64,000 bases of DNA from an uncultured Candidatus Saccharibacteria bacterium (GTDB taxonomy: Bacteria > Patescibacteriota > Minisyncoccia > UBA6257 > WO2-44-18). Under the pieces are notes generated by a model. The model was not told the DNA's origin and ran no database searches. It saw nothing but the letters and a program-made list of their open reading frames with translations. Made by a program: the position numbers and the translations under genes. The stretch covers positions 65,586-129,585 of the forward strand of contig CAZWVU010000003.1 of NCBI GenBank assembly GCA_964637575.1, in the 5' to 3' direction. Numbering within the stretch: the first letter of the stretch is position 1; each line of letters opens with the position of its first letter. This document shows positions 7,317 through 63,851 of the stretch, one piece after another.

Positions 7317-7390
7317 TTTTTAATTTACAATTTTAAATTTTCCAATCAATTTTCAATGACTCAATGTTTAAAATATGTAAGAATTCAATC

Positions 7391-7425
7391 ATTCATTTTA
7401 AATTTCAAATTTAAACTTTAAAATT
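7391..7425 (+). repeat. 35-bp AT-rich element (attcattttaaatttcaaatttaaactttaaaatt), copy 1 of 2
   Basis: Identical to the reverse complement of 37023-37057. It lies 6 bp upstream of the glyQS start. Confidence 0.7.
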
Positions 7426-9065: not shown

Positions 9066-9137
9066 CGCGTGCCTCCTACTAAATAACTTTGCGTATTCTA
9101 CCAAATATTTTAAATTTGTCAAATATGATTTTGAGAG

Positions 9138-9200
9138 CGAACCCTCCTTCCCGCAGACAGGATTGTAGCCCGACGTCCTGGCGAGGAGAAGGAGGGTTCG
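9138..9200. repeat. 63-nt structured intergenic repeat, copy 1 (12-bp outer stem gaaccctccttc/gaaggagggttc)
   Basis: About 95% identical to 57384-57444. Forms an extended hairpin. Lies in the divergent region between the 8790-9065 gene and the M16 peptidase gene. Confidence 0.6.
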
Positions 9201-9258
9201 CTGGAGATTGCCATGCAAGCTCGCAATGACGCAGGTGAAGTGTTAAAATAATTTCATC

Positions 9259-11614: not shown

Positions 11615-13078
11615 ATGAAAAAAACGTTTTATGTCACCACTTCCATACCGTACGTGAATTCGGCGCCCCATCTCGGGAATGTCCTGGATTCCGTATATGC
11701 CGACGTGCTGGCTCGCGACAGGCGGCAGCGTGGTTTTGACGTCCGGTTTCTGACGGGAAGCGATGAGCACGGCTCAAAAATCGCGCGAAGCGCGGCTGCC
11801 GCGGGTATCACGCCGCAGGAATTTGTCGACAAAAATTCGGAAAAATTCCGGGAGCTGAAGAAGATTTTGAATTTGTCATGGGATGATTTCATCCGCACCA
11901 GCGACCGGACGCGCCATTGGCCCGGCGCCCAGAAATTGTGGGACACGCTCGCGGCGGCGAGGGATTTGTATAAAAAAACCTACCGCGGACTGTACTGCGT
12001 CGGGCATGAGGCGTTTGTTACGGAAAAGGACCTGGAAAACGGCATCTGCAAAGATCACCAGAAGGCCCCAGAAGTTATCGAAGAGGAAAACTGGTTTTTC
12101 AAACTCTCGAAATATTCAAAGGAAATAGAGAAAAGAATTAACGATCAGGAATTAAAAATCATTCCGGAAAGCCGCGCGCATGAGATTCTGGCACTGCTCA
12201 AAGAAAGGTTGGAAGACATCAGTTTTTCCCGTCCCGCGAAGGATTTGAGCTGGGGCGTCCCGGTCCCCGGCGATCCGGGGCAGACAATGTATGTTTGGGC
12301 GGAGGCGCTGGTCAACTATATTTCGGCGCTGGGGTATGGAAGCGCCGACGAATCATTGTTCAGGAAATACTGGCGCGGCGCGGACGAGATCGTGCAGGTG
12401 ATCGGAAAAGACAACCTCCGGTTTCATGCGGCGATCTGGCCCGGCATGCTGCTCGCGGCCGGCCTGCCGCTTCCCAAAACAGTGTTTGTCCATGGATTTT
12501 TAACGGTAGACGGGAAAAAAATTTCCAAAACCGTCGGTAACGTGATCGATCCGGTGGCGCTGGTAAACAAATACGGGACCGATGCCGTCCGTTATTATCT
12601 GCTGAAAGAAATTTCCCCGTTTGAGGATGGTGATTTCAGCTATGAAAAGTTTGAAGCGCTCTACAATGGAGACCTTGCCAACGGACTCGGCAATTTCGCG
12701 GCGCGCGTGCTCACACTCGGAGAAAAGTTGGGCAACGTGAGCGTGGATTCCAAAAAGGAAACCAGGAAAGAGGTAGCCGCGAAAATAGAATCGGTGAAAA
12801 AAGAATCTGAAGAAAAGCTGGCCGCATGTAAGTTCAACGAAGCGCTGGCGGCGGTCTGGCAACTGATTCATTTTGGAGACGCCTATGTGAACGCGGAGAA
12901 GCCCTGGGAGGGTAACAAGAAGGACGTGATTTTGAACGCGATCGTGCTTTTGGACAATGTCGCGGCCCTGCTCACACCATTCCTGCCGGCGGCCTCCGAA
13001 AAGATCACCGGCGCGATCCGCTGGTCCGGCACTACTTTGGAAATAAAAAGACCCGGGGTGTTATTCCCGCGGGTCTAA
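11615..13078 (+). CDS. metG: Methionyl-tRNA synthetase (short, lacking the C-terminal extension)
   Basis: HIGH-type motif (PYVNSAPHLGNVLD), KMSKS-type motif (KISKTVGN), and a 'connective peptide' region. Confidence 0.9.
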   Translation: MKKTFYVTTSIPYVNSAPHLGNVLDSVYADVLARDRRQRGFDVRFLTGSDEHGSKIARSAAAAGITPQEFVDKNSEKFRELKKILNLSWDDFIRTSDRTRHWPGAQKLWDTLAAARDLYKKTYRGLYCVGHEAFVTEKDLENGICKDHQKAPEVIEEENWFFKLSKYSKEIEKRINDQELKIIPESRAHEILALLKERLEDISFSRPAKDLSWGVPVPGDPGQTMYVWAEALVNYISALGYGSADESLFRKYWRGADEIVQVIGKDNLRFHAAIWPGMLLAAGLPLPKTVFVHGFLTVDGKKISKTVGNVIDPVALVNKYGTDAVRYYLLKEISPFEDGDFSYEKFEALYNGDLANGLGNFAARVLTLGEKLGNVSVDSKKETRKEVAAKIESVKKESEEKLAACKFNEALAAVWQLIHFGDAYVNAEKPWEGNKKDVILNAIVLLDNVAALLTPFLPAASEKITGAIRWSGTTLEIKRPGVLFPRV

Positions 13079-28500: not shown

Positions 28501-28815
28501 TTTCTTACCTTCACGCTATCGTACTATCAGTTTTTTTGAAAGGAGGTAGGCCTCTTCTTTCACACAAGCTCTGTGCGCGATGCCGGCTATTTTCTGCAGG
28601 CACTAGGCGCGACGACGAAGGCGTAGACTCTACGCCGAGGAGGAGCAACGCCGTGGCGGTCGGAAAATAGCCACATCCCTTCGGGTTGGTGCTAAAATCA
28701 TCTATCGCGGCGTCGCTCATCCTTGAAATAGAGTCTATATCTGCGTCCTCGCTCCTGGCGCTGGCTGATTTTAGCTACCAACGCGCAGGAGATTTGTGTG
28801 GAAAGGAGAGGTCTA

Positions 28816-37022: not shown

Positions 37023-37057
37023 AATTTTAAAGTTTAAATTTGAAATTTAAAATGAAT
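37023..37057 (-). repeat. 35-bp AT-rich element, copy 2 of 2 (reverse orientation)
   Basis: Reverse complement is identical to 7391-7425. Lies in the infB leader. Confidence 0.7.
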
Positions 37058-37138
37058 GTTTAATGCTTAAATTTTTTAAACATTACGTCATTTAAAATTG
37101 ATTAAAAATTAAAAATTTTAAATTGGTATAATGAACCT

Positions 37139-38023
37139 ATGCCCGATATCAACAAGCTTCTTAAGGACTACCTGGACTATCTGGAAATCGACAAAAACCG
37201 TTCGCCGAAGACGCGGCAGAATTACGAACGTTACCTCAACGCATTCCTTTCTCATCAAAAGATCAAACAATTGAAGGATTTGACGCTGGACACAATCAAT
37301 AATTTCCGGCTGGCCATGGCGCGCGAGAAAGATATCAAGAAAGTTACCCAGTCGTATTACGTGATCGCCATCCGCAACTTTCTGAAGTACCTCATCAAAA
37401 AAGATTATGACGTGGTGGCGCCGGATAAAATCGAATTGCCGAAGATCGCCCAGCGGCAGATTGAACTTGTGGAATTCAGCGATCTGGACCGGCTCCTTGC
37501 CGCGCCTGATTTGGGCACGCTCCGCGGAATGCGCGACAAAGCTATTCTGGAACTATTCTTTTCCACCGGACTCCGCCTCTCCGAACTCTGCTCGCTCAAT
37601 CGTTATCTGAATTTTGATAAAGGCGAGCTGACTGTCCGGGGAAAAGGGGAAAAACTGCGGCTGGTGTTCATTTCCGACGGCGCCAAAAAAGCGCTCAAAC
37701 AATATCTCGACAAGCGTCCCGACACCCACGAGCACCTTTTTATCAGCCTGGATAAAAGCGACAAGGTGATAGGCAAGATCACGCCGCGCGCCGTCCAGCG
37801 CCTGGTTTCCTACTACGCGCAAAAAGCCGGCATTACGCGGCGGCTGACGCCGCACGGCCTGCGCCATCTTTTCGCGACCGACTTACTGATGAACGGCGCC
37901 GACTTGCGTTCGGTCCAGGAACTGCTTGGCCACGCCAACGTCGCGACCACGCAGGTCTACACGCACCTCACTAACAAGCACCTCAAAGAAGTCCACGACG
38001 CTTTTCACGCCAAGCGCCGTTAG
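37139..38023 (+). CDS. Tyrosine site-specific recombinase, XerC/XerD family
   Basis: Catalytic R..HxxR..Y region (LRHLFATDLL...LLGHANVATTQVYTHL). Confidence 0.8.
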   Translation: MPDINKLLKDYLDYLEIDKNRSPKTRQNYERYLNAFLSHQKIKQLKDLTLDTINNFRLAMAREKDIKKVTQSYYVIAIRNFLKYLIKKDYDVVAPDKIELPKIAQRQIELVEFSDLDRLLAAPDLGTLRGMRDKAILELFFSTGLRLSELCSLNRYLNFDKGELTVRGKGEKLRLVFISDGAKKALKQYLDKRPDTHEHLFISLDKSDKVIGKITPRAVQRLVSYYAQKAGITRRLTPHGLRHLFATDLLMNGADLRSVQELLGHANVATTQVYTHLTNKHLKEVHDAFHAKRR

Positions 38024-50212: not shown

Positions 50213-50758
50213 TTATGCTTTTAATACCACCACTTTCATTCCCGGTGTAATATCTTTTTTCTTGATGACCAGTTTTTCCTCCGGTTCGGCTTTCTTCTCT
50301 ACTTCCTTCAAAAACGCCGCCACCTCCGCCGGCTTTATATATGAAGGGATGACGATCTTGGGCTGGATCTGCTTGATCACTTTGGCGCTGATGCCCGCCG
50401 GCGCGAAGAGAATGTCCACTTCGCCGAGCTTGTCCAAAAGCCCCGGCTCCATCTCCTGCATCGCCTCGCCCATAAACACCAGCCGCATCTCCTCGGTTTT
50501 TACCAAGTAAGTTGTGGCCAGCCCGCCTGAGGCGGGAAATCCCCCCATTTCCACTTCGGAAATTTCATATTCGCCCGGTCCGTAAATATGCCCCGCTTCC
50601 GGCGGCCACGTCTTTAGTACGGAGTTCTTAGTTCCAAGTTCTAAGTTCTGCGTATGCAGGGTTATGTCGCCTTTGAAACGCGGCAGGGGATCAGTGATGA
50701 TACTCACTTTTCCTGATTGGATCTTAAAGCACCGCTCTCCTGCGTAGGTGATTACCAT
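50213..50758 (-). CDS. Metallo-beta-lactamase-fold hydrolase-like protein (tentative)
   Basis: Size and sequence pattern resemble short MBL-fold proteins. No clear HxHxDH motif, so confidence is low. Confidence 0.4.
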   Translation of the reverse strand: MVITYAGERCFKIQSGKVSIITDPLPRFKGDITLHTQNLELGTKNSVLKTWPPEAGHIYGPGEYEISEVEMGGFPASGGLATTYLVKTEEMRLVFMGEAMQEMEPGLLDKLGEVDILFAPAGISAKVIKQIQPKIVIPSYIKPAEVAAFLKEVEKKAEPEEKLVIKKKDITPGMKVVVLKA

Positions 50759-50840
50759 AAGAATACTTTCTATTTTACACTACTTTCTGACCAAAACAAA
50801 GTATTTATGCTACTTGAAAAACATCTGCTTAAGAGTGATA

Positions 50841-51551
50841 ATGAGCGAGAAATCAATGAATTTTACTTGCCCGTACTGTAATAGGCCAACGACAATAACC
50901 GGCCCCAATTCTTTTTCTGATTGGCGACATATCGTTATAGCAAAATCAACGCTTGGGAATGCCGGGTTATTTTCTCGAGCTATTACTTGCCCCAATAAAG
51001 AATGTAATAAGCTTTGGCTTCATATTGGGCTTTATGAGGCAGATTATGCAGGACGCCGAGTTGAATATAACCGCCTGAATCAGTGGCAGCTTTTGCCAGA
51101 ATCGGAAGCGAGGGTTTTACCAGAGTATATACCCGCACCAATACAGGAGGACTATTATGAAGCATGCAGAATCCGTGATTTAAGCCCGAAGGCATCCGCC
51201 ACACTCGCGAGACGTTGCCTACAGGGCATGATCCGTGATTTTTGGAAGATTAAAAAGGCGCGACTTAAGGAAGAAGTTGATGCGCTGGAAGAAAAAGTGG
51301 ATGCGGATACTTGGTCGAGTATAGATGCAGTCAGAAGTGTCGGTAACATTGGCGCGCACATGGAAAGAGACATTGATGTCATCGTTGCGGTTGAGCCACA
51401 AGAGGCGCAGCTACTAATTGGTCTTATCGAGCAATTGATTGACGATTGGTATGTCGCCCGAGATTCTAGGCACAAGCGCACAGAAGAATTAAAAAAGTTG
51501 GCAATGGATAAGCAAGAACAAAGAAGTGGAGCTGAAAAAAAGGAAGAATAA
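50841..51551 (+). CDS. Zinc-ribbon + DUF4145-like helical domain protein
   Basis: N-terminal CPYCN...CPNKEC zinc ribbon. C-terminal segment (ACRIRDLSPKASATLARRCLQGMIRDF...RSVGNIGAHMERD) resembles DUF4145. TATAAT overlaps the start codon, so the mRNA is probably leaderless. Confidence 0.5.
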   Translation: MSEKSMNFTCPYCNRPTTITGPNSFSDWRHIVIAKSTLGNAGLFSRAITCPNKECNKLWLHIGLYEADYAGRRVEYNRLNQWQLLPESEARVLPEYIPAPIQEDYYEACRIRDLSPKASATLARRCLQGMIRDFWKIKKARLKEEVDALEEKVDADTWSSIDAVRSVGNIGAHMERDIDVIVAVEPQEAQLLIGLIEQLIDDWYVARDSRHKRTEELKKLAMDKQEQRSGAEKKEE

Positions 51552-51555
51552 AATT

Positions 51556-51822
51556 ATGCGCACAAGTACAAAAATATTAATCGGAGTAGTTGCTTTTCTT
51601 GCAGTATTATTTGTATTTACCCGGTATGCCCCTAACTCTCCAAAAACTGATCCAGAAGCAATAAAGAAAACGCTCCAAATATTAATCAACGGCAACGACG
51701 CCAAAATACAAGAACTCCAGGATGAGATCAAGAAAACCAGAGCTTCAAGTGACTGCCTGAAGTCAGCGATTGTGTCATATAAGGACCAAGGCTTTCAGGA
51801 AATTTTAAGCAGTTGCCAATAA
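51556..51822 (+). CDS. Small signal-anchored protein (88 aa)
   Basis: AAGGAAG Shine-Dalgarno. One TM helix followed by a coiled-coil-like tail. Confidence 0.4.
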   Translation: MRTSTKILIGVVAFLAVLFVFTRYAPNSPKTDPEAIKKTLQILINGNDAKIQELQDEIKKTRASSDCLKSAIVSYKDQGFQEILSSCQ

Positions 51823-51915
51823 CTTACTCAAAGAATAAGGCATTGCACTGGTTTGGCATTAATTAAATAAAAAATCCCCCTTGCGGGTATTTTTATTTTC
51901 GGCGAAGATGGCTGG

Positions 51916-53070
51916 ATGGCCGATGAATTACCAGAGGGGCTGAAGGGAATGAAAAAAGTTAAATCATCTGACGGTGATTTTGTCGCCAAGAAAAAGCCCG
52001 GAAAAATATATGTTTCTGACTTCTCTGCAAAAGAGGGGAAGTATTTTAGCGTGATTGCGGATGAAGGAGGTGGCAAGGTTCTGCATGATAGCGCCCGACT
52101 TCAGATCCGAGCTTGTTTTATCACGAAGCTCGGACAGGTGAACGAATTGAAGATTCAACGATTTGAAAAAAAGAAAGGAGAAGTCGTTCCGGGCAGTGTA
52201 GTCGAAATACGTATTGACACCGCTAATTTAGCCGTGCTCCGCGAGTTTGTCGACTTTATCCAGCGAGCCGACCTAGCATCGGTTGCTGCCGGGCGGCTTA
52301 GTTTTGACGCCGACCTGAAGCTAGAAAAAGGATTACAGGCCAAGCTGGTGGCTCTTGCGCAGGACGAGGGCGGGAGGGCAATGCTCCTTAAACTTTTCGA
52401 AGATGGATATCTCACATCTGGCCTCGATGTTTCCGATCTTATCAAAAAAGGATTATCGCATGAGAAGCTTGAGCAAAAATTTGCCATCCTTACAAAATTT
52501 GAAAAACTAATTAAAACCCCCGATATCAGCGAGTTAAAGATTCAGGAATTTCTCACTTCGGCGCCATGGATTTTTGGTCCTGAATATACTGCTGTTGATA
52601 TTCGCGATGCCGGTTCATCCGGAGTACCGGATCGGCGCTTGAAAAGAATCGACGGGCTGAGCGATATCTTAGAGTTCAAGCTTCCGTCCGCTGAAGTTCT
52701 GAGAGCTGATAAAATGGGCAGGCAATACATTGCGCCCGCGGCGGCTGAGGCGCTCGGTCAATTAATGGCCTATCTTGAATACTATACGAGCGAATACCAG
52801 GAGCTAAAAAAAGACGTGGATGGGAAGGAGGTGCTAGAAGAGTTTCGTGGTCGTTACTACAAGCCAAAGGGAATCCTTTTAATTGGTCGGAGAAGCGCCG
52901 CTTCAGGAGTTGATGGCGTGAAGGCGACGACCGACGTTCAACCGAAGCACCTGCGGCGCATGATGTCATTCTTTCACGGCATCGAGGTTCTCACATATGA
53001 CGATTTAATTGAGCGCGCTCGGAATGGATTGGTTGCAATATCGGGCGATGGCGCATCTACGTGGGTGTAG
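51916..53070 (+). CDS. Predicted PD-(D/E)xK-superfamily nuclease; Shedu/DUF4263-like, tentative
   Basis: C-terminal region ...FGPEYTAVDIRD...RIDGLSDILEFKLP fits a D...(hydrophobic)3-E-x-K restriction-endonuclease-fold motif. N-terminal region is not assignable. Confidence 0.45.
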   Translation: MADELPEGLKGMKKVKSSDGDFVAKKKPGKIYVSDFSAKEGKYFSVIADEGGGKVLHDSARLQIRACFITKLGQVNELKIQRFEKKKGEVVPGSVVEIRIDTANLAVLREFVDFIQRADLASVAAGRLSFDADLKLEKGLQAKLVALAQDEGGRAMLLKLFEDGYLTSGLDVSDLIKKGLSHEKLEQKFAILTKFEKLIKTPDISELKIQEFLTSAPWIFGPEYTAVDIRDAGSSGVPDRRLKRIDGLSDILEFKLPSAEVLRADKMGRQYIAPAAAEALGQLMAYLEYYTSEYQELKKDVDGKEVLEEFRGRYYKPKGILLIGRRSAASGVDGVKATTDVQPKHLRRMMSFFHGIEVLTYDDLIERARNGLVAISGDGASTWV

Positions 53071-54300: not shown

Positions 54301-54567
54301 ATGCTAACTTCCAGAAAGAAAAAAACAGTTATCAAAGAACACGGCGTACATGAAACCGATACCGGCTCGGCGGCGGTTCAGATCGGTTTGCTGTCCAAGC
54401 AGATCGAGGAACTGACTGGCCATCTCAAGAAGCACCAGAAGGATAACCACTCCCGCCGCGGATTGCTTAAGATGGTCGGCAAGCGCCGCCGCCTGCTGGT
54501 CTATCTCGAGAAGACCGACAACAAGACCTACAACTCGCTCGTCAAGAAACTCGGGCTGAAAAAGTAG
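54301..54567 (+). CDS. rpsO: 30S ribosomal protein S15
   Basis: Characteristic S15 sequence ([36 protein letters not shown]). Confidence 0.9.
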
Positions 54568-54617
54568 CCCCGCCGGTACAATATAGGGTTATTGTGACGC
54601 TTAATAACTAACACATC

Positions 54618-55178
54618 ATGATAAAAAACAAAGAACAGAGAGTCGGAATCTTCATTGATGTCCAGAATCTCTATCACTCCGCCAAAAATTTATACAAGGC
54701 CAGGGTGAATTTTAAGGAACTCGTAAAATCACTGACCGGCGGGCGCAAGCTCATCCGCGCCATCGCCTACGTCGTGAAGACCGAAGCCACCGAAGGAGAG
54801 TCGGCTTTTTTTGACGCGCTCAAACAGGCGGGCATCGAACTCCGGATCAAGGACATCCAGATCTATCCGGGCGGCGCAAAAAAAGCGGACTGGGACGTCG
54901 GCATGGCGGTGGACGCCATCCGCATGTCTGGGTTTCTCGATGTGATTGTGCTGGTGACGGGGGACGGCGACTTCCTGCCGCTGGTGGATTATCTGAAGTG
55001 GGGCGCCGGCCGGGTGGTAGAAGTGGCGGCCTTCAGCCGGACAACCAAGACCGAGATGAAATCGCAGGGTGATGAATTCATCCCGATAGAAGATATCCGC
55101 GGCGCCCTCATCCGGGGAGCGATCGGCCGGATGAACAGCCGCCGGGCGGGTAATCAGGAAAGCGCCGACAACGAATAA
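54618..55178 (+). CDS. NYN-domain (LabA/DUF88-like, PIN-like) protein
   Basis: VGIFIDVQNLYHSAK...LVTGDGDFLPLV matches the acidic NYN catalytic core. Confidence 0.6.
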   Translation: MIKNKEQRVGIFIDVQNLYHSAKNLYKARVNFKELVKSLTGGRKLIRAIAYVVKTEATEGESAFFDALKQAGIELRIKDIQIYPGGAKKADWDVGMAVDAIRMSGFLDVIVLVTGDGDFLPLVDYLKWGAGRVVEVAAFSRTTKTEMKSQGDEFIPIEDIRGALIRGAIGRMNSRRAGNQESADNE

Positions 55179-55185
55179 CACAAAT

Positions 55186-57309
55186 ATGGAACTCAACAAA
55201 AAACAATTTAAAATGGATTTTCACGGCCGGCCGCTGACGCTGGAAGTGTCGCGCCTTGCCGAGCAGGCCAATGCCGCGGTGATCGGCCGCTACGGCGACA
55301 CGGTGGTGATGACGACGGTGGTGATGGGCGACACGGAGCGCGACATCGATTATTTCCCGCTCACCGTGGATTACGAGGAGCGTTTTTATTCCGTCGGCAA
55401 AATTCTCGGCAGCCGGTTCCTGCGCCGCGAGGGCCGGCCGGCGACGGAGGCGATTCTCGCGGGTCGCGTTATCGACCGCTCCATCCGTCCGCTGTTTGAC
55501 CACCGCCTGCGCCGCGACGTGCAGGTGATCGTTACCGTGCTCCAGCTCGATGATGAAAATACCCAGGATTTCATCACGCTTCTGACGACCTCGGCGGCGC
55601 TCGCCATTTCCAATATTCCGTGGAACGGCCCGGTGGCCGGGATGTCGCTGTCGCACGACGGCAAGGCGCTCATGCTAAACCCGACCAACTCCCAGCTCGC
55701 GAAGGCCGAAGCCGCGGAGGGCGGTTTCAGGAGTTTTGTCGCCGGGACGAAAGACCGGATCAACATGATCGAACTCGAAGGCGTGGACACGCAGGAAGGC
55801 GAAGTGGCCAAGGCCTACGACCTGGCCCAGAAAGAAATCGCCAAGCTGGTGGAATGGCAGCAGGAGATCGTCAAAGAAGCAGGCAAGCCGAAAGCCACCG
55901 TGCACCTCGCGGAGATGGATCAGACGCTCGTGAAAATGGTGCGCGATTTTCTCAAGGACAAGCTTGAAGGCGCGATGTTCGTGAAACAGAAACAGGAAAT
56001 GGAGAAGAAGATGGCGGAACTGCGCGGGGCGCTCCAGGGGCATCTTGTCACCGCCGGCCTCGGCGACGCGAAGCAGATCGCGGAAGCGATGCATATTTTG
56101 GACGAGGAAACCAATGAACTGGTGCACGAAAAAGTCCTGCGTGAGCAGAAGCGGCCGGACGGCCGCAAGCTCGACGAGATCCGCGATCTCCACGCCGAAG
56201 TGGGCGTACTCAACCGCGCGCACGGTTCAGCGGTGTTCATCCGCGGCAACACGCAGGCGCTTGCGGTGACGACCATCGCCCCGCCGGGATCGGAACAACT
56301 GGTGGAAGGCGTGACCTTCTCCGGCAAAAAGCGTTTCATGCTCCATTATAATTTCCATCCGTACTCCACCGGTGAGACGGGGAGAGTGGGAAGCCCGGGA
56401 CGGCGCGAGATCGGCCATGGCGCGCTTGCCGAAAAAGCGGTGCAGAGTCTGATCCCGCCGCAGTCTGAATTTCCCTATACAATCCGCGTGGTCTCCGAAA
56501 TCCTTTCGTCCAACGGTTCATCTTCCATGGCCACCGTGTGCGGTTCGTGCCTTTCGTTGATGGACGCCGGCGTGCCGATCAAAAAACTCGCCGCGGGCAT
56601 CGCGATGGGCCTGATGACGGGAAAGAACGGCGAGTATAAAGTGCTCACCGATATCCAGGGTCCGGAGGATCACCACGGCGACATGGATTTCAAAGTGGCG
56701 GGAACGCATGACGGCATCCGCGCGATCCAGATGGACGTGAAAATTGACGGCCTCACCAACGCGATGCTCAAGGACGCGCTCGCCCAGGCGAAGAAGGCGC
56801 GCCAGGAAATTCTGAAAGTGATGGAGAAAACCATTTCCAAACCGCGCGCCGAGCTGTCTCCGTTCGCGCCGCGGGTGCTGACAATGAAAGTGAATCCGGA
56901 AAAGATCGGCGAGATTATCGGTCCCGGCGGCAAGACGATCAACGGCATCATCGAGCGGACCGGTGCGCTTACTATAGATATAGAACAGACCGGTGAAGTC
57001 TTTATTGCCGGCGCCACCAAAGAAACCGCCGAAGCCGCGTACAAAGAAGTGGAGAGCATCGTCAAGGAGTATCACATCGGGGATATTGTGGAAGGGCCGA
57101 TCGTGAAAATTCTGGAATTCGGCGCGATTGTGCAATTCGCTCCGGGGCGCGACGGGATGATCCACGTTTCCGAGCTTAAGCAGGGATTCGTGAAAAAGGT
57201 GGAGGATGTGGTGAAGCTGGGCGATGTTGTCCGCGTCAAGATTATCAAAGCCGATCCCGACGGCCGTATCGGCCTTTCCCTGAAGGCCATGAACGAGGGG
57301 AGCAAATAG
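55186..57309 (+). CDS. pnp: Polyribonucleotide nucleotidyltransferase (PNPase)
   Basis: Two RNase PH domains, then a KH domain (GPGGKTINGI) and an S1 domain at the C-terminus. Confidence 0.9.
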   Translation: MELNKKQFKMDFHGRPLTLEVSRLAEQANAAVIGRYGDTVVMTTVVMGDTERDIDYFPLTVDYEERFYSVGKILGSRFLRREGRPATEAILAGRVIDRSIRPLFDHRLRRDVQVIVTVLQLDDENTQDFITLLTTSAALAISNIPWNGPVAGMSLSHDGKALMLNPTNSQLAKAEAAEGGFRSFVAGTKDRINMIELEGVDTQEGEVAKAYDLAQKEIAKLVEWQQEIVKEAGKPKATVHLAEMDQTLVKMVRDFLKDKLEGAMFVKQKQEMEKKMAELRGALQGHLVTAGLGDAKQIAEAMHILDEETNELVHEKVLREQKRPDGRKLDEIRDLHAEVGVLNRAHGSAVFIRGNTQALAVTTIAPPGSEQLVEGVTFSGKKRFMLHYNFHPYSTGETGRVGSPGRREIGHGALAEKAVQSLIPPQSEFPYTIRVVSEILSSNGSSSMATVCGSCLSLMDAGVPIKKLAAGIAMGLMTGKNGEYKVLTDIQGPEDHHGDMDFKVAGTHDGIRAIQMDVKIDGLTNAMLKDALAQAKKARQEILKVMEKTISKPRAELSPFAPRVLTMKVNPEKIGEIIGPGGKTINGIIERTGALTIDIEQTGEVFIAGATKETAEAAYKEVESIVKEYHIGDIVEGPIVKILEFGAIVQFAPGRDGMIHVSELKQGFVKKVEDVVKLGDVVRVKIIKADPDGRIGLSLKAMNEGSK

Positions 57310-57383
57310 CCAATCCCAGCGAGGTTATCCATGCGGAAGCCGGATTGCTTCTCGGGAACGTCCCGCAGATATATATAAAAAAA

Positions 57384-57444
57384 CGAACCCTCCTTCCCGC
57401 AGACAGGATTGAAGCCCGACGTCCTGTCGAGGAGAAGGAGGGTT
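57384..57444. repeat. 63-nt structured intergenic repeat, copy 2
   Basis: 60 of 63 positions identical to 9138-9200. On the minus strand the hairpin is followed by a T-run. Confidence 0.6.
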
Positions 57445-57500
57445 TGTAAAAAGTTATTCTGTTTCCCAAAAGCAGTCTGGCTGACCGAGTGCCAAGTTAT

Positions 57501-57541
57501 GCACAGAACCGCCGATCAACGGCGGTTCTGTGCGTTATAAT
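57501..57541 (+). promoter_or_regulatory. 14-bp perfect palindrome (gcacagaaccgccg ATCAA cggcggttctgtgc) abutting a TATAAT -10 box
   Basis: Palindrome at 57501-57533. TATAAT at 57536-57541, 8 nt before the ATG at 57550, so the transcript is near-leaderless. Confidence 0.4.
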
Positions 57542-57549
57542 GAACCTAG

Positions 57550-60500
57550 ATGTTTAAGCCAAAGAGAATACTCTTTTTGGTGCTTATTGGACTGGCACTG
57601 TCAGGCTTTCTTTTTGCATGTGAAAGGACGGCCAATGCGGAACTCACCGTCGTTGCCGGGCCGTACACGAATGCCGCGTTGCAGCAGGTGTCTGACAGCC
57701 CCGTCCAAACACTGGAAGGTTGGTTCCGCAATCTTGGCAGTTTAATTATCAGCAACGTGCGCCATACCGCGGTGAGCGTGGCGGATATATTCCGGCCCGG
57801 CGCCGCCCAGCCGCTGGCCCAGCTTCTTCCGCAGAACCAGCTTGCGCAAACAGTAGAAGTGACTCCGTTGCCCGGCACGGAAACGGTCAACAAGACCACC
57901 TCCACGTCCGGCTCGGTCACCACTCAGGTCATCGAACGTCAGATCACCCCGATCCAGATCAGTGTCAGCGTGAGCCAGAACGCTTCCAATAGTAATCTCC
58001 AGACGGAGATCAACGCGCTCCAGTCCCAATTCACCGCCTTCCAGCAATCCCAATCCCAGGTCACCCAATCTATTTTCCAGGTGGTCGGGCAAAGCAGTAT
58101 CTCCAGCAAATTTGTCACTGATCTTCTCACTGATGCCAACATTCCCAACAACATCACCGTTTCCGGATATCTTCCGGTGGCCGGAGGCAGCTTGAGCGGC
58201 GATTTGGGTGTGGGTGGCGTATTGAGCGTCACCGGCACTGCTACTTCTTCGGTAAGCGGTCCGCTCACTATCACCACGACGACCGCGACCTCTTCCTTCA
58301 GCGGGGGATTGACGGTGGCGGCGACGAGCGGCGTCTTCGGCATCGGCACGACTACTCCAGGCGCTGCGCTCGCCGTTGCGGGCAACGCGGTAGTCGGCGG
58401 GAACACGACCATCGTCGGCAATCTGGACATTCAGGGTTCCTGCACCGGCTGCGGCGGTTCTTCGATCGTGAATCTTAGCGAAGCCGGATCGCTCGATGGC
58501 TTTGCCTCCACTGCTCCCTGGGGCGTCTTATCGGTTGAGCAGATATCTTCCAACAATACCAACCTTCCCGCCTTTATCGTTTCCGATCAGGGCACCTCGA
58601 CCGCCTCACTCATCGTGATGAACAACAACGGGTATGTCGGCATCGGCACCAACACTCCTTCGGAGCGGTTTACCGTGGGAAAAGGGAATTTCCTGAATCC
58701 GATCGCGAGCACGACGCCGCTTGCCGGTGTGGATTTCGGCAGCGATGCCGTTGAGGGCATGGCCATTGTCGGCCGCTACGCGTATGTAGTAACGACCGGC
58801 GATACGGGAACCTGCACGACCTCAACGTTTACCGGCTGCGAATTCAAGATTATCGATCTCCACAATATCAAAAAACCGGCTATCGTCGGCGGGTACGATC
58901 TGGAATCCACCAGTTCCTTTACCGATGGTGGCGAGTCCATCGCGGTTTACGGCCGCTACGCGTATGTCGGGAAGTACCAGAGTGCGAAAACCTGCAGCCA
59001 GCCGAACAATGTCAAAGGCTGCGAGCTGGTGATCTTTGATATTTCCAATCCGGCTTCCACGACGGTGGTGAGCGGCACCAATTTTGACACTGTGGGCATC
59101 CGGGCGATTCAGACGAACGGCCGCTATGCATATATCGGGACCAGCCGGGACAGCGTGACGTGCTCCGTTCCGGGCGAGCCGGAAGGTTGCGATTTTCAGG
59201 TGTACGACGTATCCAACGTTGCCTCCACCACCTTTATCGGCGGCACAGATCTTAAAGACGGAGTCAGCAACATCGGAGTTACCATCAACGGGGTCCAGAT
59301 CCGCGGTAAATATGCCTATGTCGCCAAGTCGGAATCGGGCGGCGAAACGTGCGACACTACATATGTTACCTGCGAATTTGTGATCTATGATATTTCCGAT
59401 CCGACCAACCCGACGGCGATCGGCGGCGCCGATCTTGGTCCGGCCGCCAACAGCCAGGTGGCGTATGGACTCGCCATCCAGGGACGGTACGCTTACATTA
59501 CTACTGACGACCAGGCTGCCGCGTGCACCCCGTCTACCGGCAATGGCTGCGGACTGCTCGTGTTTGATATATCCAATCCCGCCTCTCCCTCGCTGGTAAA
59601 CGGTTTTGATATCGCCAACAACAGCGGCTCCGGCGTCATCGCCTTCGGACATTATCTGGTAGTGACCAACTCCGTTAATTCCGGGAATTGCACCGGCCAA
59701 AGCGATTGCACCACGAGTATATTCGATATCAGCAACCCGAACTCTCCTTCGTTTCTTGCCGGCGTTGATACCGGCGAGAAGGGCGTCGTGAGCGATGGTT
59801 TTCTCAACGCGGACGGCCGTTATCTGTTCATGTATGGCGGCGAAAACAGCACTGTCTGCAGTGGCACGGATGTGAGCGGCTGCGAACTTCGCGTCTACGA
59901 CCTCGGCGGCTCCGAGATCGGTTCCGCCAACATCGGATCCCTGGAAGCGGGCATTGTTTCCACGCAAGGCGATCTGACCGTCGGCGGCAATGCCAGGATC
60001 GCCTCCGGCCTCAACGTCGGCTTCGCCGGCATTGGCACTGAAGGCACCCTGATGGTAGCTTCCTCATCTTCATTCTTCGGACCGATCGGCGTCGGCACCA
60101 CTTCACCGCAAGGCATGGTGGCTATCGATAACTCCGTCGCCGGCACCAAAATGCCCGCACTTCTCATCAAAGCCGGCGGCACGGGCAACGGCAATATCGC
60201 CATCGCGGTTAGTTCAACCGAAGTTTGCAAAGATACCGTGAACGTCGCCACCTGCGTGCTCAACGACCTTGCGGAGCTTTACCCTGCTTCCGGTCAGCTG
60301 GAAGGCGGGGACATCGTTGCCTTTGATTCTGGCGCGCCGATTAATGTGAAAAAAGCCGGCTATGACAATCGTGAACAGCTGGCGGGTGTTCTCTCTACAA
60401 ACCCGGCGATCGTTTTTGAAGGTTCCAAGATCAAGATTATGGGCGGCTCTTATCAGTGGGAAGGCAGCAGCGTACCGGTAGCGCTCTCCGGAAGAATTCC

Positions 60501-61053
60501 GGTCAAGGTCTCTCTGGACAACGGTCCGATTCATATCGGTGATCCGATCACGATCTCTACTTCCACGCCCGGCGTCGGCGTGAAGGCCACCGAATCCGGC
60601 AAGATCATCGGCTACGCGCTGGAAAATCTCGATACGGCAACGACCGCCCCGGGAGTATTTGAAAAAGTAATGATCTTCGCCAACCTGACTTACTGGCAGA
60701 ATCCGAAACAGGACAGCCAGAGTTGGCTCGCCGCCGTCGCTGACTGGCTGAAGGGAGCGGTAGTAACAATACAGGAATTATTCGTCGGGAAACTTACGGT
60801 GGGAACGCCGGATCAGCCGGCGGGAATTACCATGTATGACCAGGCGACCGGACAGCCGTACTGCTTCGGTCTCCGGAATGGCGCCGCGGAATATGTGCCG
60901 GGGGCGTGCGGATCCGCCGCGTCTGTTACCACGCCTTCTTCACCGTCCGATCCTTCGCCATCTTCTTCCGATTCTGCAACTTCAACGACCACTCCGGATA
61001 CTGCTACTCCCGATACCGTGGTTCCTGATGCCTCTGGCACGCCGTCGCAGTAG
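57550..61053 (+). CDS. Giant cell-surface protein with seven LVIVD-type beta-propeller repeats and a Ser/Thr/Pro-rich tail
   Basis: N-terminal signal/anchor. Seven repeats of G(R/K)YAY(V/I)...C....C(E/D)(F/L).(I/V)(F/Y)D(I/V)SNP..P...G. C-terminus is PSSPSDPSPSSSDSATSTTTP. Confidence 0.6.
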   Translation: MFKPKRILFLVLIGLALSGFLFACERTANAELTVVAGPYTNAALQQVSDSPVQTLEGWFRNLGSLIISNVRHTAVSVADIFRPGAAQPLAQLLPQNQLAQTVEVTPLPGTETVNKTTSTSGSVTTQVIERQITPIQISVSVSQNASNSNLQTEINALQSQFTAFQQSQSQVTQSIFQVVGQSSISSKFVTDLLTDANIPNNITVSGYLPVAGGSLSGDLGVGGVLSVTGTATSSVSGPLTITTTTATSSFSGGLTVAATSGVFGIGTTTPGAALAVAGNAVVGGNTTIVGNLDIQGSCTGCGGSSIVNLSEAGSLDGFASTAPWGVLSVEQISSNNTNLPAFIVSDQGTSTASLIVMNNNGYVGIGTNTPSERFTVGKGNFLNPIASTTPLAGVDFGSDAVEGMAIVGRYAYVVTTGDTGTCTTSTFTGCEFKIIDLHNIKKPAIVGGYDLESTSSFTDGGESIAVYGRYAYVGKYQSAKTCSQPNNVKGCELVIFDISNPASTTVVSGTNFDTVGIRAIQTNGRYAYIGTSRDSVTCSVPGEPEGCDFQVYDVSNVASTTFIGGTDLKDGVSNIGVTINGVQIRGKYAYVAKSESGGETCDTTYVTCEFVIYDISDPTNPTAIGGADLGPAANSQVAYGLAIQGRYAYITTDDQAAACTPSTGNGCGLLVFDISNPASPSLVNGFDIANNSGSGVIAFGHYLVVTNSVNSGNCTGQSDCTTSIFDISNPNSPSFLAGVDTGEKGVVSDGFLNADGRYLFMYGGENSTVCSGTDVSGCELRVYDLGGSEIGSANIGSLEAGIVSTQGDLTVGGNARIASGLNVGFAGIGTEGTLMVASSSSFFGPIGVGTTSPQGMVAIDNSVAGTKMPALLIKAGGTGNGNIAIAVSSTEVCKDTVNVATCVLNDLAELYPASGQLEGGDIVAFDSGAPINVKKAGYDNREQLAGVLSTNPAIVFEGSKIKIMGGSYQWEGSSVPVALSGRIPVKVSLDNGPIHIGDPITISTSTPGVGVKATESGKIIGYALENLDTATTAPGVFEKVMIFANLTYWQNPKQDSQSWLAAVADWLKGAVVTIQELFVGKLTVGTPDQPAGITMYDQATGQPYCFGLRNGAAEYVPGACGSAASVTTPSSPSDPSPSSSDSATSTTTPDTATPDTVVPDASGTPSQ

Positions 61054-63440: not shown

Positions 63441-63680
63441 ATGGCGAACAAAGACTTTGAAGATCTGAAGACGAGACTTCTTAAGGAACAAAAAGAAATT
63501 GCCGAAACGCTCGCGAAAATGCCGGAGGTGCCGGATTCGGGCAGCGACGTGGAAGGGGAGGAGGCGGAAGAGGAAACTGATGAAGCGGAGGACTATTTCA
63601 ACCAGATCAGCCAGAAGCAGGCGCTCAAAACCCGTCTCGTGGAGATCAAGGATCAGTTAGACAAACTTTCCAGGGGTTAG
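63441..63680 (+). CDS. Small acidic coiled-coil protein (DksA/TraR-N-terminal-like, no zinc finger)
   Basis: Coiled-coil heptads and an acidic tract. No CxxC motif. Confidence 0.35.
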   Translation: MANKDFEDLKTRLLKEQKEIAETLAKMPEVPDSGSDVEGEEAEEETDEAEDYFNQISQKQALKTRLVEIKDQLDKLSRG

Positions 63681-63851
63681 ACGGTTATCGGAAAATTCTC
63701 TCGGGAACCGGGTGTCCGTCGCGCTCCGGCGGCGCGCCGGCACCGCTTAGCTCTCGCCGATTCGCAAGGCACCAAGCCGAATCGTCTCCGAGATATTCCC
63801 TCAAGAACTTTCCGATACCCGTCTTTTTATTTATTTTTTTGAATAATGAAA

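Follow-up and report, generated by a model that had tools for sequence, protein, structure and literature searches.

The 63-nt repeat found twice in the window (the whole 64 kb stretch of DNA analysed here) is, in the reading that we tentatively favour, the apical part of a family of long hairpins (~65-156 nt) that is specific to one lineage and acts as folded RNA of fixed polarity. The family is previously undescribed, belongs to one lineage of groundwater Patescibacteria and probably acts as RNA near genes such as pnp. Full-length members have a closing helix of ~20-27 bp under compensatory substitution and a variable apex, and the 63-nt module is present twice in this genome stretch, nested as the tip of a composite hairpin and alone upstream of an M16 peptidase gene. 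Patescibacteria (CPR) have tiny genomes and, to our knowledge, very few described non-coding RNAs or repeats; a covariation-backed hairpin family would be among the few structured elements specific to them. Members in the pnp 3' UTR and behind a decaying dksA-like gene would offer a handle on mRNA-end control or, alternatively, on the spread of palindromic elements in streamlined genomes.

Two copies of a 63-nt hairpin

Copy 1 (9138-9200, plus strand) and copy 2 (57384-57446, plus strand) have the same orientation and are identical at 60 of 63 positions, the three differences being T/A (9166/57412), G/T (9181/57427) and C/T (9199/57445). The first-pass annotation had described two near-identical intergenic sites of 63 nt with three mismatches, which is confirmed; its limits for copy 1 stand, but the end that it gave for copy 2 (57444) takes in 61 of the 63 nt, the true end being 57446. 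A repeat search of the window returned the pair at 97% over 61 nt, and a 27-mer out of the core occurs exactly twice in the window and in none of 100 dinucleotide shuffles. Homology between the copies breaks off sharply at the base of the hairpin, beyond which their sequences are unrelated. Copy 1 lies in a divergent region upstream of the M16 peptidase gene and copy 2 between pnp and the LVIVD gene, neighbours that had been named correctly.

The core folds into the long hairpin with outer and inner stems that had been proposed. The outer stem is 13 bp long and perfect (its second pair is G.U in copy 2) and is followed by a bulged A, two pairs, a 3x2 internal loop (GCA/GA) and, at the tip, an inner stem of 7-8 bp (with an A.G mismatch in copy 1) and a loop of 11-13 nt. 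Copy 1 is solitary, without an outer helix, and its pairing reaches 9136-9202. The minimum free energy (MFE) is -42.0 kcal/mol for copy 1 (z -5.3) and -40.1 kcal/mol for copy 2 (z -7.5). A covariance model of the core, run over the 64 kb with filters off, finds the two copies only (98 and 97 bits), the best unrelated match being at 16 bits.

The core is non-coding, each reading frame being broken in one copy or another, in agreement with the earlier view that no coding feature accounts for it; a small ORF over the 5' arm (MRKPDCFSGTSRR) was rejected, as it is not preserved in the third copy described below. At the gathering threshold, Rfam 15 identifies seven tRNAs in the whole window and nothing else, and neither copy is matched by a family. 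Three further readings were rejected: a tRNA fragment (there is no tRNA-like match), a K-turn at the internal loop (the pairing register is wrong) and the TR/VR pair of a DGR (both copies form intergenic hairpins, and the substitutions between them are not confined to adenine). The apical loop is no more complementary to other parts of the window than chance predicts.

Copy 1 is placed between the -35 regions of two divergent promoters and, given this site, may be untranscribed. The sequence TATGAT at 9124-9129 (plus strand), 7 nt ahead of the point where copy 1 begins to pair, could be a -10 box; the promoter scan of this region did not call it and returned only a minus-strand promoter (9122-9095). 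As to the window at large, a strong Shine-Dalgarno motif precedes only 3 of 44 long genes, and in many a TATAAT-like box stands 7-9 nt ahead of the ATG (e.g. 9245-9250, 37125-37130 and 57536-57541), which suggests that the mRNAs are mostly leaderless. A 39-nt AT-rich repeat (36 nt exact) occurs in inverted orientation at 7387-7425 and 37023-37061, 7-11 nt upstream of the starts of the glycyl-tRNA synthetase and IF-2 genes, and would thus be a shared promoter or leader sequence.

The composite hairpin after pnp and further members

Copy 2 is merely the tip of a composite hairpin of ~145 nt (57338-57482, plus strand), which the first-pass annotation had missed. The closing helix pairs ~57338-57350 with 57470-57482, and inward of it lie inner helices, an A-rich internal loop and the 63-nt core as the tip. 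The MFE of the composite is -70.2 kcal/mol (z -7.6), compared with -55.9 for the antisense strand. Its site is between the pnp stop codon and an ancestral terminator and promoter, a 16-bp hairpin (57499-57535) with a TATAAT box (57536-57541), both on the plus strand, which serves the leaderless LVIVD gene and whose layout is kept in relatives. In all six relatives examined the composite is absent after pnp; the order there is stop codon, spacer, an AGTTATSCACA motif, a hairpin of terminator type and the TATAAT box of the gene that follows, with ~12-15 nt from stop codon to motif at loci L048-L051 and ~65 nt at L040. The composite is an insertion relative to these relatives: the window retains the ancestral module at 57492-57541, preceded by ~180 additional nt. 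PNPase homologs put the window within Patescibacteria/Parcubacteria, close to Candidatus Harrisonbacteria. The nearest other PNPases are 77-80% identical to that of the window, the closest relative (L038) at 80%.

Other features of this region vary among the relatives. L038 (2927-3004) and L039 have a different palindrome of 78 nt at the same post-pnp site, with a perfect stem of 17 bp and a canonical terminator after it. The LVIVD-repeat gene (1167 aa; 57550-61053), which now stands behind the ancestral TATAAT box, is absent from the relatives; the post-pnp gene of L038 and L048-L051 is a CarboxypepD_reg gene, and L040 and L042 carry other genes. An NYN-domain gene (a predicted RNase) is located between rpsO and pnp in the window (54301-57309) and in all examined relatives (loci L038-L051).

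A third copy of the core is present on a 762-nt contig from Hainich groundwater (L046) that is independent of the window, in line with the earlier claim of a dispersed family of non-coding structured repeats. The contig was found by six-frame translation against a protein database, through a spurious ORF (P0121). Its core is identical to copy 1 at 60 of 60 positions, it shares homologous flanks with copy 2 (84% identity to the copy-2 region over 129 nt) and its architecture is that of the composite, with an MFE of -57.1 kcal/mol compared with -44.1 for the opposite strand. Between copy 2 and L046, the core is identical at 59 of 63 positions and the outer part at 56 of 83 (p = 9e-5). L046 is a low-coverage contig and possibly a chimera, because its first 143 nt resemble a GC-rich organism; the only return from a search for its neighbouring genes was a partial 5-formyl-THF cyclo-ligase gene of a GC-rich organism. 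Short N-terminal 5-formyltetrahydrofolate cyclo-ligase-like fragments that end in a GC-rich hairpin are found both at 1-150 of L046 and at 87-329 of L047; they are 86% identical over 143 nt, and the contigs are unrelated.

The relative L040/L041 (GCA_023244815.1) carries a hairpin of 156 nt directly after a dksA-like gene (L040el). Its arms match those of the window composite at 92% (26 nt) and 87% (31 nt), its apex differs, and its inverted repeat is perfect over 27-29 bp (MFE -79.8 kcal/mol; opposite strand -76.4). Among the copy-2 composite, L046 and L040, the arms are better conserved than the centres. A multi-branched hairpin of 144 nt in the window itself (63681-63824, minus strand), termed S, begins 1 nt past the stop codon of a truncated dksA-like gene and has an MFE of -77.0 kcal/mol (z -5.9), compared with -61.5 for the plus strand. 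By sequence comparison, S is a diverged paralog that the first-pass annotation had not noticed and the syntenic ortholog of L040el: the local alignment (23/29, same offset) has a score found in 0 of 500 shuffles, S can be aligned over the full length of L040el with the strands the same, and the two neighbouring dksA-like genes are 75% identical. The dksA/TraR-like gene of the window (63441-63680) has lost its C-terminal zinc-finger part and encodes 79 aa, compared with 111 in L040 and 108 in L042. Downstream of its dksA-like gene, L042 has a palindrome of 86 nt with a stem of 19 bp (~12735-12820), flanked by two terminators. This could be an ortholog of S and L040el that has diverged; as a family member it was rejected, the similarity not being significant (p ~0.15-0.24).

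A covariance model of the four long members (R2) scores these members at 119-149 bits (composite 148.9, S 119) and matches copy 1 in part (44.7 bits, model positions 39-128); over 166 kb, including the related loci, it finds no additional copies. The tally is three family members in the 64 kb of the window and one locus only in the relatives (~100 kb). Under permissive settings, Rfam returned only sub-threshold noise of miRNA-like or terminator type for both copies, L046, L040el and S, and 6S RNA models gave no match at E <= 10 (copy 2, L040el and S) or E <= 1 (L046). The negative results from large collections rest on narrow patterns (the outer stem, a 20-mer): the outer-stem pattern had 29 matches among GTDB species representatives, all unrelated; one 20-mer had two chance matches, within coding region, in JGI metagenomes; and four patterns gave nothing, or chance matches lacking the partner arm, in IMG/VR. 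BLAST of phage and plasmid collections gave no match, and a window-wide scan of raw MFE for more hairpins was swamped by GC-rich coding DNA. The 29 GTDB matches (L007-L035) are divergent gene pairs of Oscillospiraceae and Tannerellaceae with facing Shine-Dalgarno sites; many members of these families have a divergent spacer of 52-54 nt bounded by perfectly inverted Shine-Dalgarno regions (AACCCTCCTTC / GAAGGAGGGTT).

All members have in common a central motif, TCYCGSAGRC-hairpin-GSCGAGRR, with the same C-rich/G-rich helix and an internal loop GCA/GA (GGA/GA in S). In copy 1 it reads TCCCGCAGAC-hairpin-GGCGAGGA (9149-9187, plus strand) and in copy 2 TCCCGCAGAC...GTCGAGGA (57395-57433, plus strand); it is also found in L046, L040el and S, and the outer element of the composite holds a second TCCCGCAGA at 57361-57369. 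The motif was defined post hoc and is therefore a lead, not a test.

Covariation and strand polarity

Pairing was compared in MAFFT alignments, with one structure derived from a compared sequence; the five known members come from three or four genomes, so that the covariation is based on few sequences. In the closing helix of the window composite, L046 and L040 (21 pairs), 94.6% of the cells are paired and there are three both-side and four one-side changes. Slid controls of this helix are 25-54% paired with no compensatory changes, and the observed count is reached in 46 of 500 shuffles. The comparison of S with L040el gives 15 pairs with both sides changed (shuffled 7.3 +/- 1.9, with 0 of 500 reaching 15; slid controls 3-7), and 12 of the 27 pairs of the outer helix are compensatory. 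RNAalifold on four sequences finds, as a raw count, 13 of 38 pairs changed on both sides, and in this consensus one column pair is UA, AU, CG and GC. Going by these alignments, the closing helix is maintained by compensatory changes, as a structured RNA requires. The 63-nt core is nearly invariant, has no compensatory change and is therefore uninformative on covariation; its near-invariance fits recent copying and constraint equally well.

The sense strand, as defined by homology, has the more stable fold in all five members, by 15.5 kcal/mol in S, 14.3 in the composite, 13.0 in L046, 3.5 in copy 1 (-42.0, opposite strand -38.5) and 3.4 in L040el. The two composite MFE structures contain five and four G.U pairs, and their single-base mismatches are never A.C. 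The greater stability of the sense strand and the G.U pattern would be expected of a transcribed RNA of fixed polarity and not of a strand-neutral DNA palindrome. The conserved RNA structure that the first-pass annotation had considered is thus supported by the covarying closing helix and the better-folding homologous strand.

Possible function, alternative explanations and related systems

As a structured RNA element, copy 2 would be co-transcribed with rpsO-NYN-pnp and would form a long near-perfect helix with an asymmetric internal loop (5'-GCA/GA-3'). In the pnp 3' UTR such a helix would stop 3'-to-5' exonucleases, PNPase included, and a double-strand-specific RNase, or some other protein that binds helices, would find a natural substrate in it; by blocking exonucleases and offering a dsRNase site, the helix would determine how stable the flanking mRNA is and how its 3' end is processed. 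Copy 1, if driven by TATGAT, would form a 5'-terminal hairpin on the M16 transcript. We infer the transcription of the element and the origin of its copies, and a role in cis as stabiliser or processing site is proposed by analogy with REP, ERIC and Correia elements and with the E. coli pnp leader. Against this reading, relatives with 77-80% PNPase identity have no element after pnp, and L040el with its perfect arms and slight strand asymmetry resembles a young inverted-repeat element. Nor is the orientation to neighbouring genes uniform: copy 2, S and L040el are downstream of a co-oriented gene, and copy 1 and L046 are in divergent regions.

A bolder version, which we regard as unlikely, is that the family represents a novel class of structured non-coding RNAs confined to one lineage of Parcubacteria, with the invariant 63-nt module as a dedicated protein-binding domain. 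The SD/anti-SD-like helix and the GCA/GA loop would then bind, for example, an RNase, a PNPase partner or RNA polymerase. If this were true, the paralogs at the pnp, dksA-like and M16 genes would constitute a small regulatory RNA system, and one that sits in an organism largely without Shine-Dalgarno-led translation.

Chief among the rivals is a selfish DNA repeat, palindromic and of the MITE/REP/ERIC/Correia type, with the RNA hairpin as a by-product; this is possible, if doubtful. The arms would be terminal inverted repeats for a transposase or Y1 (RAYT-like) enzyme encoded elsewhere, and copies would enter AT-rich intergenic sites just past stop codons. Such an origin would suit the sharp homology boundary at the hairpin base, the occurrence of the core both alone and nested, the insertion of the composite relative to six relatives (where another palindrome, of 78 nt, occupies this site in L038/L039), the perfect inverted arms of L040el and the better conservation of arms than centres. 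The terminal inverted repeats (13 bp in the core, 27-29 bp in L040el) without coding capacity are as in a MITE. The 65-nt unit has candidate direct repeats of 6 bp on either side (TTGAGA/TGGAGA for copy 1, AAAAAA/AAAAAG for copy 2), but they match at just 5 of 6 positions and one pair is an A-run; L046 and L040el show none. The ~55 ORFs of the window, scanned with Pfam, include no transposase, RAYT or reverse transcriptase, and copy number is low, with three members in 64 kb and one locus in ~100 kb of relatives; two core copies in 64 kb with a unit of 63-65 nt do not amount to a REP/BIME population. The REP/MITE-like reading offered by the first-pass annotation is conjectural in view of these same points: no transposase or RAYT in the window, imperfect direct repeats and few copies. 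The synteny of S and L040el across genus-level divergence, with 12 compensatory pairs in the closing helix, would be unexpected for transposase-bound ends, and the uniform polarity of strand stability suggests RNA.

Assembly behaviour also bears on mobility. Logan contigs from three or four samples end at fixed points in or beside the element, at 57400 (three samples), 57445 (two or three) and 9171. Such contigs extend k-1 = 30 nt into an exact repeat (k=31), as validated by contig L004, whose start at 7396 falls within the exact repeat 7390-7425; the fixed stops would therefore point to other sequences in the samples that share 57371-57474 and the stretch from 9142 onward. The element reproducibly breaks short-read assemblies, which is relevant to MAG curation. 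A second, unrelated palindromic family in the window has likewise been counted in favour of mobile repeats. It consists of intergenic palindromes at 2598-2866 and 28574-28789 that are unrelated to the 63-nt repeat, one of 269 nt with perfect ends of 23 bp (MFE -116.9 kcal/mol, z -10.7) and one a rod of ~215 nt (z -6.6); they have 46 nt in common at 80% identity (GTAGACTCTA...GAGCAACG) and no Rfam match at gathering level. The two 63-nt copies as att sites of a 48-kb island were rejected, the interval being packed with housekeeping genes. At 50748-53070, a DUF4145 gene and a Shedu-type (SduA_C) defence gene separate the Lactamase_B_3 gene from the S1-domain gene; in the relatives L040 and L049 this site is empty.

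The second rival, a family of trans-acting sRNA genes, would make each member a rod-like protein-binding RNA with its own promoter and the 63-nt module as the binding domain; we consider this distinctly unlikely. It shares with the structured RNA element the covariation and fixed polarity that indicate RNA, and the internal loop GCA/GA (GGA/GA in S) is conserved family-wide. S and L040el are located past the terminator of the upstream gene and so would require a promoter of their own, and the L042 palindrome sits between two terminators. Promoter-like sequences are found 7 nt before the hairpin in L046 (TTAACA-16-TATTTT) and copy 1 (TATGAT), but these weak motifs were picked out by eye from an AT-rich background, and copy 2 lacks a plausible promoter (13-nt spacer). 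The apical domains of L040el and S are wholly unlike those of the copy-2 composite and L046, and no Rfam family (6S, Y RNA, SRP and others) matches even at E <= 10.

A DNA-level site, that is, a cruciform or hairpin for a recombinase or DNA-binding protein (attC-like or Xer-like), is highly improbable. The sequence is a long inverted repeat and a Xer-type tyrosine recombinase is encoded at 37139-38023, but the arms are 37 nt apart and not dif-like, the ends (A/G)CGAAC ... GTT(C/T)G(C/T) do not fit attC (R'' RYYYAAC ... R' GTTRRRY), there is no integron or cassette context and no integron integrase in the window, and the G.U-based strand asymmetry favours RNA. An intrinsic terminator on the minus strand of copy 2, for which the first-pass annotation had noted the geometry, deserves hardly any weight: the U-run stands (U7 directly after copy 2, and UCUUUUAU on the same strand of L046, between two co-oriented genes), but the terminator does not, because no minus-strand gene enters copy 2 and ends there and neither strand of copy 1 carries a U-run; moreover the terminator scan called neither copy, the usual terminators here are hairpins of ~28 nt with flanking A and T runs, and the minus strand has the weaker fold.

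Among known systems, 6S and Y RNAs have in common with the long members a size of ~145-156 nt, a closing helix formed from the 5' and 3' ends, internal loops and covariation; here there is no Rfam match, no recognisable central bubble or Ro-binding helix, and the apices are not conserved. Bacterial MITEs are likewise non-coding, with terminal inverted repeats, sharp boundaries, AT-rich sites and nesting. Unlike them, the present elements have direct repeats (5/6) that are merely suggestive and no parent IS in the window, 63 bp is unusually small, and orthologous retention with covariation is atypical. REPs stabilise mRNA 3' ends against PNPase and RNase II; they are 20-40 nt long, with a conserved 5' tetranucleotide, hundreds of copies and a RAYT gene. 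The likeness of the family to REP/BIME elements is that of short extragenic palindromes in mosaic arrangement, whereas the tetranucleotide, the hundreds of copies and a RAYT gene in the window are all lacking.

In E. coli, the rpsO-pnp spacer is the pnp leader, a hairpin cleaved by RNase III through which PNPase regulates its own synthesis. The predicted long helix on the pnp transcript resembles this leader, and the order rpsO...pnp is kept; by analogy, the helix could couple dsRNase cleavage and PNPase attack to the stability of pnp mRNA. In contrast to E. coli, the hairpin is here 3' of pnp, the rpsO-pnp spacer holds the NYN-domain gene, and the hairpin is absent from close relatives. The ERIC/IRU elements of enterobacteria and the Correia/NEMIS elements of Neisseria are imperfect intergenic palindromes of 100-150 bp, often just past stop codons, that are co-transcribed with their neighbours as long RNA hairpins altering mRNA stability or cut by RNase III, and that form size variants through internal deletions or insertions. 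The family shares with them the intergenic position, palindromic structure and similar size, and no sequence similarity. Its copies are very few, compared with tens to hundreds of theirs, its host is a Patescibacterium, and its closing helix covaries between syntenic orthologs with the polarity of the fold fixed.
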